From IMG/VR virus record IMGVR_UViG_3300025502_001355: a stretch of DNA of 64,000 bases; one strand, 5' to 3'. Numbering within the stretch: the first letter of the stretch is position 1; each line of letters opens with the position of its first letter. The stretch comes from an uncultured virus (IMG/VR IMGVR_UViG_3300025502_001355) (Duplodnaviria > Heunggongvirae > Uroviricota > Caudoviricetes). The notes beneath the pieces are model-generated. The model saw only the letters and a program-made list of their open reading frames with translations, did no database searches and was not told where the DNA came from. This document shows positions 5,379-9,579 of this stretch, piece after piece. Made by a program: the position numbers and the translations under genes.

Positions 5379-5570
5379 ATGACTATAGCAGAACTACAAC
5401 GGTTAGCAGGCATTACTGAGAAGAAGAAATCAAAGTCTTTCAGTAACATCAGTTATACTGCGGCCGAAAAAGCTAAAATAATGAAAAAAAGAAAAATTAA
5501 ACCAGGCACGCCTGAATGGTTTAAGTTGTGGTTTTCGAGACCCTATCTCACAGGCGAAAAACCTTACTAA
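5379..5570 (+). CDS. Small late protein
   Basis: TAAATA at 5368, 5 nt before ATG; ELQRLAGI motif; IKPGTPEWFKLWF. Confidence 0.65.
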   Translation: MTIAELQRLAGITEKKKSKSFSNISYTAAEKAKIMKKRKIKPGTPEWFKLWFSRPYLTGEKPY

Positions 5571-6094
5571 GCAACCTTTGCTTTTATACCTAAATACTGT
5601 TCCCACTTAGGGTCTTTGATTTCTACATGACTGTTGCGCCATGCTGATGCTAGTCCCCAATAGTCTGGTTTAAACGGTTTGCGTATCGGCTTTCTCAGTT
5701 TATCAGCCTTGCGACTATTGCAACTCTTACATGAAGTTACACAGTTCTCCCACGACGTTTTGCCATTTAGGCTACGTGGGATAACATGATCTATGGATAA
5801 ATCTTTGAAGTCAAACGTATCTGCACAGTACTGACACTGATATAAATCACGCAAATAAACATTTGTTCTACTGAAACGTACATAACGTTTAGGATTAAAG
5901 TATTCCTTGGTAACTGCTACACTAGGCACATTTAAGGTAAGTTTTTCGCTGTTTATGTGCCAATCAGGATAGGTTTCCAGCACTTGTATGCGGCCTAAGA
6001 ACATCAATTTAACTGAGTGGTGCCAATGTATTACAGACAGCGGCAGTACTGAAATGGGGGTGTAATCTTTGTTTAGTAGCAGAGTATCTGACAT
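5567..6094 (-). CDS. HNH endonuclease (McrA-like)
   Basis: RD..CQYC, SIDHVIPRS.NG, WENCVTSCKSCN; start taken at MSDTLLLN. Confidence 0.85.
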   Translation of the reverse strand: MSDTLLLNKDYTPISVLPLSVIHWHHSVKLMFLGRIQVLETYPDWHINSEKLTLNVPSVAVTKEYFNPKRYVRFSRTNVYLRDLYQCQYCADTFDFKDLSIDHVIPRSLNGKTSWENCVTSCKSCNSRKADKLRKPIRKPFKPDYWGLASAWRNSHVEIKDPKWEQYLGIKAKVA

Positions 6095-6122
6095 AAGTAC
6101 TGTATATAAAGTATATATCATT

Positions 6123-6770
6123 ATGTCAAACGAAGCAAACATTATTAAGTCTCCTTACCAGAAGGTAAGCTTCACAGAGGAGCAAATACAGGAATTCATG
6201 AAGTGTGCAGACCCAGACACCGGGCCGACCTTCTTTATGAGTAACTTCTTTAATATACAGCACCCCACAAGAGGTAAGATGCTGTATAAGCCATTTGAGT
6301 ACCAGGATAGACTGATCAACGCTTACCATACAAACCGATTCAGCATTAGTCTTATGCCCAGGCAGACTGGTAAAACAACCACTGCCGCTGGGTACCTGCT
6401 ATGGCGGGCCATGTTTAACCCAGATAGCACAATTCTTATTGCCGCACACAAGTACACAGGTGCGCAAGAGATTATGCAACGTGTTAGGTATGCATACGAA
6501 CTTTGCCCGGACTATATACGTGCTGGTGTTGTTAGTTACAACAAAGGCAGTATAGACTTTGAAAACGGATCACGTATTGTTTCACAAACAACCACCGAAA
6601 CAACTGGACGAGGTATGAGTATTACACTGCTATATTGTTTAGGTGGAGACACTATTGTTCGTATTCGAAACAAACAAACGTTGGCAGAAGAAGATATTAC
6701 ATTAAAGGATTTATGTATTAAACTTTATAGTCCAGATGAATATTCAGGTGATGAATTTGCATTCGTATAA
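6123..6770 (+). CDS. terL: Terminase large subunit N-terminal half fused to a split-intein N-fragment
   Basis: gp17-like YQ adenine motif, Walker A PRQTGKT, GRGMSITLLY, then intein block A CLGGDTIV. Confidence 0.92.
   Translation: MSNEANIIKSPYQKVSFTEEQIQEFMKCADPDTGPTFFMSNFFNIQHPTRGKMLYKPFEYQDRLINAYHTNRFSISLMPRQTGKTTTAAGYLLWRAMFNPDSTILIAAHKYTGAQEIMQRVRYAYELCPDYIRAGVVSYNKGSIDFENGSRIVSQTTTETTGRGMSITLLYCLGGDTIVRIRNKQTLAEEDITLKDLCIKLYSPDEYSGDEFAFV
6636..6767 (+). mobile_element. Split intein N-fragment (IntN, 44 aa)
   Basis: Cys1 interrupts Walker B LLY|CDE; CLGGDTIVRIR...ITLKDL matches the intein N-terminal motifs. Confidence 0.85.
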
Positions 6771-6773
6771 ATA
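6766..6773 (+). promoter_or_regulatory. T4-like late promoter TATAAATA for the endonuclease/TerL-C unit
   Basis: Exact TATAAATA overlapping the TerL-N stop codon, 4 nt before ATG 6778. Confidence 0.7.
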
Positions 6774-6777
6774 CAGT

Positions 6778-7671
6778 ATGAACAAACTAGAGCAATTTAA
6801 ACGTAGAAATCAAAAAAGAAACTCGCAACTATATTCAGATTACTTAACAGAAAATATAGATTATATACTTTGTCCAGTAAGTAACGAGCGATTAAGTATG
6901 ATAAAAACAACATACATTGAACGTGTACTAGAGATGACCGTAGCAGAATATGACAAATTGTTCCCTGGTGTTAGAGGTGTAACGCCCGCCCGCCGAAAAA
7001 ATATCAAAGATGGCTTAAAAGAAATAGATAAGACTAGTGGATTAACGAAGCACCAGCTGGCATGTGTTAAATCAAAACAGACATTATCCAGTCTGGATTC
7101 AGACGGTGTATCAGGATACGCCAAACTAGGCAAAAAGACCCGTGCTACTCATATGAACAATATAGACCAATTTGGCAGAAACGGTTATTCACAATTAGCA
7201 ACACATGCTATTGTAAAAGGCAATAACACTAAGGTTAAGAAAGGAATTATATTAGATCCTGCACTACGAAACGAATTTTACCGTTATAAGTCAATAGTAT
7301 TATATCTTACCGAAAAACAGCGATCAGCTATAACAACTGGATACAAAACAGGAGTTGCTGGAGTTGCTGGGGCCTACCATATAGACCATATATATTCTAT
7401 ACTACAAGGATATAAAGATAATGTTAGTCCATTATTGATAGGTAGTAAAAGTAATTTACAAATGTTGCCTTGGCATGATAATTTATCAAAACATGGTAAG
7501 TGTACTATAACCTTGGATACTTTATTCAACCGTGCTAGTTATAATATAGATAGATCAAAAAGTGAATTTGATGTTTTTTTAAATATGATTCGTTATGACA
7601 TAAAAGAATCTGCATTGGTTAGTGGTGCAATGCTAATAGAGAGGTTTAATGAAACAAACTTACGCACCTAA
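6778..7671 (+). CDS. Free-standing putative HNH homing endonuclease inside the fractured terL
   Basis: YHIDHIYS...SNLQMLPWHDNLSK HNH-type motif; located between the two intein halves. Confidence 0.72.
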   Translation: MNKLEQFKRRNQKRNSQLYSDYLTENIDYILCPVSNERLSMIKTTYIERVLEMTVAEYDKLFPGVRGVTPARRKNIKDGLKEIDKTSGLTKHQLACVKSKQTLSSLDSDGVSGYAKLGKKTRATHMNNIDQFGRNGYSQLATHAIVKGNNTKVKKGIILDPALRNEFYRYKSIVLYLTEKQRSAITTGYKTGVAGVAGAYHIDHIYSILQGYKDNVSPLLIGSKSNLQMLPWHDNLSKHGKCTITLDTLFNRASYNIDRSKSEFDVFLNMIRYDIKESALVSGAMLIERFNETNLRT

Positions 7672-7984
7672 TACAGAATACCAAATTTTTACACCCAACG
7701 GTTGGGAAGATTTTGAAGGCATTTTTGTAAATGAAACTGCAAATAAAGACTCTCGAAAAATAACATTTAATGATGAGTCGTTTATTATTGCTACCCTTGA
7801 GCATCGATTTTTTATCAGTAATACTGAAATTAAAGTAAAAGATATTGTACTAGGTGATAAATTAGATTCTGAAAATACTATTAAAATAGTAACAGCATTA
7901 GAAGATATGGTATTAGAAGACACATACGAAATATTTAATGCAGAGAATCATGTCATACTAGCAAATAAGATTAATTCTCATCAA
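7649..7984 (+). mobile_element. Split intein C-fragment (IntC, 112 aa, ends His-Gln)
   Basis: Block B ATLEHRF, block F TYEIFNAENH, block G NSHQ followed by +1 Cys. Confidence 0.87.
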
Positions 7985-9037
7985 TGCGACGAGTTCGCAT
8001 TTGTTCGACCCACCATTGCTAGAGAGTTTTGGACATCCATATCACCCACACTTAGTACTGGTGGTCAAGCAATCATTACATCAACACCAAACAGTGACGA
8101 AGATCAGTTTGCGTTTATATGGAAACAAGCCAACAAGAGTGTAGACGAGTATGGTAACCCAACCAAAAACGGGTTAGGTATTAATGGTTTCTATGCGTAC
8201 AAGTCAGACTGGTGGGAACATCCTGACAGGGATGACAAGTGGAAAGAAGAGGAAATGGGGCGTATCGGTGAAGAACGCTTCAGACGAGAACACGGATGTG
8301 AGTTCTTAATTTACGACGAAACACTGATTAACAGCACCACACTGATTGACATGGAAGGGAAAGGTCCCATAGAGAAACAAGGACAAGTGCGTTGGTATAA
8401 AAAACCTCAAAAAGGCAAAACATACGTAATTGGGTTGGATCCAAGTCTTGGCACAGGTGGTGATCCCGCGGCTATACAAGTATTTGAATTGCCTACAATG
8501 ATACAATGTGGCGAATGGCAACACAACAAAACACCAATACAAAGACAAATTGGTATCCTAAAGGAAATTTGTGACTACATTGCGGAAATGACACAAACAC
8601 CCAATAACATTTATTATAGTATAGAAAACAACACACTTGGCGAAGCAGGACTGGTAGTGATCAGTGATATGGGTGAAGAGAACATCAAAGGCACATTTTT
8701 AAGTCAGCCTGTTACCCCGGGTTCGTCTAGACTACACAGAAAAGGGTTTACTACTACAAATAGGTCTAAGCTAACAGTGTGTGCAAAGTTTAAAAGTTTG
8801 ATCGAAAGTAAGAAAATGATTATCAACAGTCAAAACTTAATTAGTGAACTTAAAACATTTGTGGCGCACGGTGCTAGTTTTAGCGCAAAACAAGGCGAAC
8901 GTGATGATTTGGTCATGGCCAGTTTATTGGCATTAAGAATGACACAGGCACTACAGAGTTTTGACAGTGAACTAGATAGTCACATGCGTGATGGTGCAGA
9001 TGATTTCCAAGCGCCGATGCCCTTTATAATGATATGA
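7649..9037 (+). CDS. terL: Split-intein C-fragment fused to terminase large subunit C-terminal half
   Basis: After SHQ comes CDEFAFV (Walker B), ITSTPN coupling motif, RNase H-like GLDPS and DDLVMA; SD AGAGAGG. Confidence 0.92.
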   Translation: MKQTYAPNTEYQIFTPNGWEDFEGIFVNETANKDSRKITFNDESFIIATLEHRFFISNTEIKVKDIVLGDKLDSENTIKIVTALEDMVLEDTYEIFNAENHVILANKINSHQCDEFAFVRPTIAREFWTSISPTLSTGGQAIITSTPNSDEDQFAFIWKQANKSVDEYGNPTKNGLGINGFYAYKSDWWEHPDRDDKWKEEEMGRIGEERFRREHGCEFLIYDETLINSTTLIDMEGKGPIEKQGQVRWYKKPQKGKTYVIGLDPSLGTGGDPAAIQVFELPTMIQCGEWQHNKTPIQRQIGILKEICDYIAEMTQTPNNIYYSIENNTLGEAGLVVISDMGEENIKGTFLSQPVTPGSSRLHRKGFTTTNRSKLTVCAKFKSLIESKKMIINSQNLISELKTFVAHGASFSAKQGERDDLVMASLLALRMTQALQSFDSELDSHMRDGADDFQAPMPFIMI

Positions 9038-9579
9038 AAATTACTCCGGTTGACAGTCAACATAATCTATTTCTAGTAGAAGACATTTATCCGCAAGATT
9101 TGATCGACCAAATTAGTCAAGTAGACTTTATGGAATATGATTGGGAGTTGCAAGAAGGGCAATTGGATTGGCCTAGACGAAAATTATTACCACCCCAAGA
9201 CAGCATATTGTTTGAATTGGATAAGCATCTCAATACCGTGCGTCTTGATATTGCAGATTCAATGAATGGACACTTTCCGGAATATGATTGCTGGAGTAGT
9301 TTTTGGCTTGATTACTCTCCATATACTTGTAAAATGCACACAGATGGTGACATACCAACAGCAATGCAGATATATCTATTAGATAATGCAGGGTCAGAAC
9401 ATGGTACAGTGTTTTATAACCCAGACAAAACAATACGTTATACGTTCCATTACAAGGTTAATACAGGTTACTTCATGTTGAATGGCTCAGACCAATATCA
9501 CGGAGTTCCTAACGTACTCCCTAAGGACCAATTGCGCCTAAGCAGTTACACCTACTTCGGCTCTTTTACGCATAAATAA
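9034..9579 (+). CDS. 2OG-Fe(II) oxygenase
   Basis: HTD...H...RLS facial triad pattern; NTGY motif. Confidence 0.7.
   Translation: MKITPVDSQHNLFLVEDIYPQDLIDQISQVDFMEYDWELQEGQLDWPRRKLLPPQDSILFELDKHLNTVRLDIADSMNGHFPEYDCWSSFWLDYSPYTCKMHTDGDIPTAMQIYLLDNAGSEHGTVFYNPDKTIRYTFHYKVNTGYFMLNGSDQYHGVPNVLPKDQLRLSSYTYFGSFTHK

Follow-up and report, generated by a model that had tools for sequence, protein, structure and literature searches.

Autorepression through a mimic of the homing site has been proven for one homing endonuclease, I-TevI, and proposed for two more, all of them intron-encoded in T4, as far as the sources available to us go. The I-TevI operator in the T4 td intron is reported to share 15 of 20 positions with the homing site and to overlap a late promoter (PMC2988022). 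For the free-standing endonucleases of T4, the accessible text of a 2009 paper states that control was then unknown (PMC2790892). In fractured genes as described by Dassa et al. (2009; PMC2677866), the N-terminal part of a host gene joined to the N-terminal half of an intein (IntN), a free-standing endonuclease gene, and the C-terminal intein half (IntC) joined to the rest of the host gene follow one another on one strand. Here we analyse a locus of this kind in a 64,000-nucleotide stretch from an uncultured Caudoviricetes virus (IMG/VR record IMGVR_UViG_3300025502_001355; the whole stretch is hereafter the window), in which the gene for the terminase large subunit (TerL) is interrupted by an atypically split intein. 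Directly upstream of the endonuclease gene lies a candidate operator, a DNA copy of that half of the intein-free insertion site which belongs to the C-extein. A literature search covering titles and the starts of abstracts, mostly outside subscription journals, found no operator in a split-intein endonuclease locus.

The likeness to I-TevI, as that system is portrayed in the portions of its literature at hand, has two parts: a look-alike of the homing site, copied from part of it, lies across the TATAAATA-type late promoter of the endonuclease itself, and binding and nuclease domains are modular. The differences are as clear. I-TevI is encoded in a group I intron and has an N-terminal GIY-YIG nuclease, whereas here the gene is free-standing within a split intein and the nuclease is C-terminal, HNH-like or PD-(D/E)xK-like; here the copy also usually gives the upstream stop codon, and the ATG follows the promoter by 1-5 nt in most loci. 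Binding and repression by the window endonuclease would be its counterparts of I-TevI behaviour, by analogy. A GIY-YIG Pfam match was found in none of 40 family members, and the flanking sequences are intein halves, so the protein resembles I-TevI in its proposed mode of control and falls outside the I-TevI family. The class to which the locus does belong is that of fractured genes, with which it shares (to judge from the parts of PMC2677866 available) gene order, strand, TATAAATA upstream, and overlap of the endonuclease stop with the IntC start; that class includes an atypically split terminase case. The terminase IntC given there (supplement file 1) resembles the P-loop-site inteins of two of our loci (L072, L074), has no CDEF string, and apparently belongs to a different site; 5′ hairpins are described, and the word "operator" is absent from the main text. 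A further comparison is with I-Bth0305I and the Vsr-like (EDxHD) homing endonucleases, which likewise have an N-terminal DNA-binding region and a C-terminal nuclease, I-Bth0305I cutting only the uninterrupted allele, beside the insertion site (PMC3239194). No sequence match between the two proteins was shown, the main text of that paper, so far as accessible, mentions no operator, and I-Bth0305I finds its specificity in a central pseudo-palindrome, whereas the window copy is asymmetric.

The copy occupies positions 6750-6767 on the plus strand. The initial annotation, made from the sequence alone, had noticed that these bases and those at 7988-8005 both encode DEFAFV, with 13/18 bases identical and all five differences at third codon positions, and this proved correct. 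The second occurrence belongs to the start of the C-extein (7985-8005, plus strand), where the +1 Cys at 7985 precedes DEFAFV; this is the homing-site half that the copy resembles, and the N-extein half of the insertion site is not part of it. Copy and C-extein form a direct repeat with a spacing of 1238 nt. A match at all 12 non-wobble positions is expected with p about 5e-8 per position at the composition of the window, and across the 64 kb and both strands only 6750 and 7988 reach it (15 places have at least 10/12). Also as annotated, the T4-type late promoter consensus TATAAATA (6766-6773, plus strand) shares the copy's last two bases, includes the TAA stop of the upstream open reading frame (ORF), and leaves a gap of 4 nt to the ATG at 6778 of the 297-aa endonuclease ORF (6778-7671, plus strand). 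Six other xATAAATA-ATG sites in the window are without a copy (0/6; best 8/12). The allele is real, being matched by contigs from runs X13, X17, and X22 with 0-2 differences across the site, X13 possibly being where this DNA came from. In sequence terms, the locus thus has what marks the I-TevI arrangement, a homing-site-like sequence overlapping the endonuclease's own promoter consensus.

The same combination recurs in relatives. An exact scan of IMG/VR for the motif together with the promoter gave 27 matches, and all 27 have IntN upstream and the window endonuclease family downstream, the copy being untranslated in 23. Loci were also sampled independently of the motif, through the endonuclease protein (126 relatives among 1333 candidates), which gave 66 + 41 loci. 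Five without a recognisable N-terminal TerL part were excluded (L084 and L138, truncated; L090 and L115, copy present; L121, copy absent), and the 102 retained form 52 clusters at 90% N-domain identity. With the copy called present at 10/12 or more non-wobble positions, it occurs in 41/41 clusters that have a TATAAATA-type promoter near the IntN stop and in 0/11 of those that do not (best 8/12). The promoter starts 16 nt from the start of the copy in 34 clusters, 17 nt in four, and 18 nt in three. On a tree of IntN and the endonuclease N-domain (median pairwise N-domain identity 58%), at least three promoter-less lineages are nested among promoter-bearing ones, with both features lost or degraded (L096, L072/L074, L080).

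What is conserved in these loci is the DNA of the copy and not the peptide. In 36 of the 41 copy-bearing clusters the copy stands untranslated after the IntN stop; it is translated in five, with about three origins on the tree. Parsimony changes among the 36 untranslated copies number 10 at the six first-position sites, none at the six second-position sites, and 30 at the five third-position sites, compared with 46 at only three spacer bases behind the promoter. Of the 23 changes at two-fold sites, 3 are transversions, as are 3 of the 7 at the four-fold Ala site. In DNA that is not translated, such a codon-like pattern is to be expected if a protein has come to read the motif-fixed positions, and homing endonucleases are reported, in the available text of PMC3159444, to tolerate wobble positions. 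Four clusters whose targets encode DEFAYV still have a DEFAFV copy. Gene conversion from the locus' own C-extein was ruled out as the source of the likeness, since wobble identity between copy and own C-extein (0.476, n = 34) equals the permuted value (0.473 ± 0.029).

The copy also outlasts exchanges of the nuclease. On the tree, the C-terminal nuclease domain has been exchanged between HNH type and PD-(D/E)xK type about nine times, IntC being exchanged with it: HNH-type domains pair with a Gln-terminal SHQ IntC (66 rows) and PD-type domains with an Asn-terminal TKN IntC (16 rows). Swaps of the nuclease-IntC block can be seen under a near-identical IntN and N-domain, for example in L053 and L094. 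The closest relative of the window locus, L005, is 87% identical to the window endonuclease over aa 1-146 and without similarity beyond. We take the alternative nuclease to be of PD-(D/E)xK type from a sequence motif; the PD-type protein of L005 has no Pfam match. The copy is retained with both types (25 HNH, 10 PD-type, 1 unassigned). Because it persists across these swaps and only the N-terminal region is common to the proteins concerned, that region (aa 1-146, 6778-7215, plus strand), a putative DNA-binding module, is likely the reader of the copy. Look-alikes of ROS/MucR type for this region, at 0.85, are a lead only.

Losses of the endonuclease point the same way. In an IntC-anchored search (best 80 of 143 loci), the copy was absent from all three distinct endonuclease-less split loci examined (L526, L532/L534, L535) and from all three unsplit inteins examined (L506, L539, L564; best 8, 8, and 9 of 12), two of the latter looking re-fused. 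In L528 the endonuclease has been replaced while the promoter is retained, and there the copy has decayed to 9/12, with two changes at positions that are invariant in the 36 untranslated copies. Partial endonuclease deletions in L504 and L548 still have the copy (10/12 and 12/12), as expected if these deletions are recent. The copy therefore depends on the endonuclease gene and not on the nuclease type: given the 41/41 against 0/11 split, the losses, and the decay in L528, it is maintained together with the endonuclease and its promoter, as an operator of I-TevI type should be. Two details of these losses can be added. The replacement in L528 is an unrelated ORF of about 140 codons behind the retained promoter, and in L539/L541/L542 the endonuclease has been lost and an IntN like that of L061 is fused in frame to IntC, with a short inverted duplication as the joint.

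We think it likely, from these comparisons and from the analogy with I-TevI, that the copy is an operator for autorepression, to which the shared N-terminal domain binds. The initial annotation had offered this as one of three readings, and every comparative test run favours it. In intein-free terL, the N-terminal domain would bind the C-extein half of the site, and cutting of such alleles would spread the IntN-endonuclease-IntC cassette. The protein would read the first and second codon positions, which the Walker B protein sequence fixes, and for this reason its binding site would resemble a recoded DEFAFV even where it is not translated. Placed on the gene's own late promoter, the 17-18 bp copy would allow the bound protein to block RNA polymerase and so cap endonuclease expression. 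The copy would itself be left uncut, by analogy with I-TevI, because the N-extein half is missing. In most relatives (28 of 41 clusters) the IntN stop codon, TGA, is also completed by the first bases of the site.

Several points weigh against this interpretation. The clusters are related, so the 41/11 split does not represent 52 independent events, and promoter and copy are not essential, since many lineages do without both. Two divergent members lack a copy at their TATAAATA-like site: L121 (no adjacent N-terminal TerL part), and L563, in which this site apparently falls within the ORF. Part of the conservation has other causes: the TGA stop dictates GA in 28/36 untranslated copies, and the promoter dictates the last T in 32/36. 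(GT is retained in four untranslated clusters with a shifted promoter.) Covariation between copy and own target at non-wobble positions was not significant (P 0.085), being suggestive in L064 and L085. The promoter activity of TATAAATA is presumed from its match to the consensus; of the 67 ORFs that lie beyond position 9000, 51 were scanned, and none gave a gp55-like match. RNA run X24 has no cover on 6649-8039 and yielded only small related pieces, which are no evidence. Finally, the nuclease and DNA-binding labels of the endonuclease are weak. Residues D203, H204, N226, and N235, in the HNH-like region (aa 160-239, 7255-7494, plus strand), are invariant in 40/40 aligned relatives, and the protein has a PHROG match to endonuclease VII at E 0.0011. 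No meaningful Pfam family, HNH included, was found for the endonuclease or for 40 relatives. A structure model with pLDDT 90.4 gave no Foldseek match at E up to 0.001; the best structural match, a weak one, is the phage HNH nuclease 5h0o (Z 4.2, rmsd 3.4, 70 aligned), and VIA-align had no match that reached Z 5, long helices dominating its list. The HNH label is plausible and weakly supported.

The nearest competitor keeps the binding and changes its purpose. The endonuclease may bind the copy while the selected output is a setting of IntC-TerL-C expression, activation of the promoter, or a decoy, which we consider unlikely. It predicts the same conservation pattern, and one transcript could carry both genes, because IntC starts within the 3′ end of the endonuclease and the plus strand showed no terminator-like site between them. 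What counts against such outputs is that a site overlapping a polymerase recognition element is placed as a repressor site would be, as set out in the available part of PMC2988022, and that the C-terminal half of TerL does not need such control, since split loci lacking an endonuclease drop promoter and copy while retaining both terL halves.

A different possibility arises from the target itself. Intein-free YCDEFAFV alleles were found at at least 120 loci, and the first 80 matches examined were all TerL. Such relatives also occur in runs X13 and X17, where contigs join 6493 to 7988 with 145 letters between, the sum of a Cys codon and the 142 bases left of the N-extein. At the Walker B Glu codon, 113 of 117 distinct intein-free alleles (among the matches listed, L141-L260) have GAG, as do 94/96 at 90% dereplication. 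For comparison, GAG makes up 63/112 at a Glu-Phe pair just downstream, 48/78 in cyanophage-like LDEF terminases, 12/14 in close-kin LDEF alleles, and 21/35 at other DEF triplets. There is a context bias towards GAG. Untranslated copies have G at this codon in 30/36, compared with 9/28 for the carriers' own C-exteins (17/45 over all clusters), and thus the copy is closer to the intein-free population than to its own gene. The window is reversed, with GAA in the copy and GAG in the C-extein. Sampling bias was tested as the cause of the GAG excess and is disfavoured among the matches listed: the four GAA rows match the first four of a scan for GAA alone, and the excess holds at 17/18 with 75% flank dereplication, although each scan gave at least 120 loci. 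RNA structure is a weak candidate for the cause, the hairpin predicted for the intein-free consensus reaching only -1.1 kcal/mol. The G may be either a preferred contact from which carriers drift or an escape allele. Beside this, the Gly codon eight codons upstream of the insertion site is GGT in 93/96 intein-free alleles (among the matches listed) and in 36/40 carriers, above other Gly codons; since carriers have the same bias, it is not specific to the intein-free state.

These codon counts would also suit a copy that is a cis-element of terL read by some other factor, of phage or host, and duplicated close to where it had stood before the intein moved it, because the GAG constraint of intein-free alleles is then shared by the copy and not by the C-exteins. 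We regard such an origin as very unlikely. Carriers without a copy do not retain the G in their C-extein (5/11), the copy vanishes along with the endonuclease or the promoter, and the predicted consensus hairpin is the weak one just mentioned.

That the copy is a functionless remnant of the site cut when the endonuclease invaded and split the intein, another of the initial readings, is highly improbable as the sole explanation, although it may describe how the copy originated. In its favour, an IntN stop supplied by the copy, as in 28/41 clusters, is expected for the invader's 5′ end in the model of Dassa et al., as far as PMC2677866 was available, and the recent endonuclease deletions of L504 and L548 retain the copy. 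A relic would not, at a median N-domain identity of 58%, be expected to keep strong position-specific conservation (no second-position changes) next to a spacer that is saturated with 46 changes, nor to decay in L528 as it has; and the break region of the three unsplit inteins is without such a sequence.

The DEFAFV tail itself, which the initial annotation had suggested might be selected as an extein mimic that gates splicing or complements Walker B, is scarcely tenable as the selected feature. The tail is exact in this strain and is not a regular part of IntN. IntN (6636-6770, plus strand, placed by alignment and the relatives' IntN ends) has Cys as its first residue at 6636 and is 44 aa long in the window versus 38 aa in L005, and its last 10 residues are the product of a frameshift. 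Where the window has lost one base (6737/6738, plus strand, from the L005 alignment), L005 and related contigs of runs X13 and X17 have an extra base, an A in those contigs, and the IntN of L005 stops at a TGA just before the copy; it is the loss of this base that lets IntN of the window read through. L004 and L005 keep the copy DNA, their TGA being formed by the base preceding the copy and the copy's first two bases, and the window's own cluster includes L073 (the L005 contig), in which the copy is untranslated. The six-residue tail is thus a frameshift accident of this strain. The proposed comparison of homologous loci for peptide and DNA gave DNA that is retained and a peptide that mostly is not, so the peptide reading is rejected. 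By frame, the 36 untranslated copies comprise 28 in +1 with the TGA overlap, six in +2, and two in 0; 12/36 would not read DEFAFV, one has an in-frame TAG, and seven copies read DKFAFV. The peptide is in frame in the window and in four more of the 41 clusters, with the separate origins given above, and two of these five read DEFGFV. The IntN tails of relatives are free to differ both in length and in sequence. The peptide from which the finding started is of no consequence.

An RNA or recombination role, with the repeats as take-off and landing sites of ribosome bypass or as a direct repeat through which the endonuclease could be deleted precisely, is negligible: the repeat exists, 1238 nt apart, and bypass cassettes of T4-like phages travel with a homing endonuclease (bioRxiv 10.1101/2022.08.31.505936, seen in part), but in most loci the copy lies after the stop and out of frame, either event would leave IntN in Walker B and remove IntC, the repeats' wobble identity is no better than that of random pairs, observed endonuclease losses retain IntC, and no Rfam match was found in 6000-9200 at E up to 1.

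If the copy is indeed an operator, a homing-site mimic is now present in a large family of free-standing split-intein endonucleases, with dozens of variants, losses, and domain swaps, and its recurrence across the family suggests a recurrent solution. The DNA in front of the gene could then predict the target of an uncharacterised endonuclease. The locus would also make a small testable system: a single 17-bp site, a domain of 150 aa to which no solved structure is clearly related, and one base predicted to act as a determinant. A bolder and quite tentative idea, which we would sooner doubt than adopt, is that operator, promoter, stop codon, and N-domain form one portable intein-splitting cassette with interchangeable nucleases that acts as a late controller of the C-terminal half of terminase, the copy reading out specificity down to the G of the Glu codon. 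Were that so, the prevalence of this G in intein-free alleles (113/117, among the matches listed) and its shift in carriers would amount to self-avoidance or to a synonymous-site arms race between phages.

The remaining parts of the locus fit a fractured gene and a split intein. The TerL N-extein (N-terminal ATPase part; 6123-6635, plus strand; Pfam Terminase_6N E 2.3e-9, PHROG terminase E 3.7e-52) ends in ITLLY, directly before the Walker B acids. IntC (112 aa, 7649-7984, plus strand), which ends in SHQ, precedes the TerL C-extein, with the remaining ATPase and the RNase H-like nuclease (7985-9037, plus strand; Pfam Terminase_6C E 7e-6, PHROG E 9.9e-78), and the start of the ORF of both, 7649-9037, overlaps the 3′ end of the endonuclease ORF, 6778-7671. 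A profile from 15 IntC sequences matches CatC (PDB 6dsl) at E 1.5e-11 over nearly the full length and the gp41-1 intein at E 3.5e-8. Cys1, the terminal His-Gln, and the +1 Cys are all present, the residues for a predicted trans-splicing reaction. The order of host N-part with IntN, free-standing endonuclease, and IntC with host C-part on one strand is complete, as are the overlap of endonuclease 3′ end and IntC start and the late promoter consensus 5′ of the endonuclease. Folds 5′ of the endonuclease are weak (-4.9 and -7.0 kcal/mol, values without a shuffle control), and a sigma-70 scan found nine sites versus 12.1 in shuffles. Like the atypically split TerL inteins represented by the Cat consensus (PDB 6dsl), this one has a short IntN and a long IntC; it differs in its insertion point in the Walker B motif of terL (LLY|CDEFAF) and in being Gln-terminal in HNH-type loci. 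Presumably AceL-TerL and GOS-TerL are inteins of the same atypically split TerL kind. We take the characterised ones to sit at a CEF site, for which the sole support is the end of the CatC chain, "ACE". A Walker B intein site is on record in mycobacteriophage TerL, in the accessible part of PMC5050341.

Further split inteins and other arrangements turned up in the survey. L004 (4100-4140), L038, L046, L081, and L087 have a second split intein at the TerL site FRREYG|CEF, whose IntN stop overlaps xATAAATA; a 25-nt segment, similar among these loci and possibly a further operator or a hairpin, then leads to another ORF. Further atypically split inteins occur at the P-loop site in L072, L074, L085, L099, L130, and L136, some without an intervening ORF, and TerL is apparently in four pieces in L074 and L085. 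In L121, L559, and L580, endonuclease and IntC-TerL-C are found with the N-terminal half of TerL absent from the DNA covered upstream (2.6 kb in the case of L559 and L580), and the halves may thus be uncoupled; inverted and direct copies in the upstream DNA of these three have only 7-9 matching positions and are not convincing. Elsewhere in the window, a second, conventional HNH endonuclease gene lies at 5567-6106 on the minus strand, divergent from terL (Pfam HNH_5 E 3.4e-16). A long run of metabolic genes at 12200-40030 includes a nucleotide-sugar epimerase, UDP-glucose dehydrogenase, heptose kinase, methyltransferase, and cysteine dioxygenase, together with Cys-rich ORFs that we take to be radical-SAM-like.

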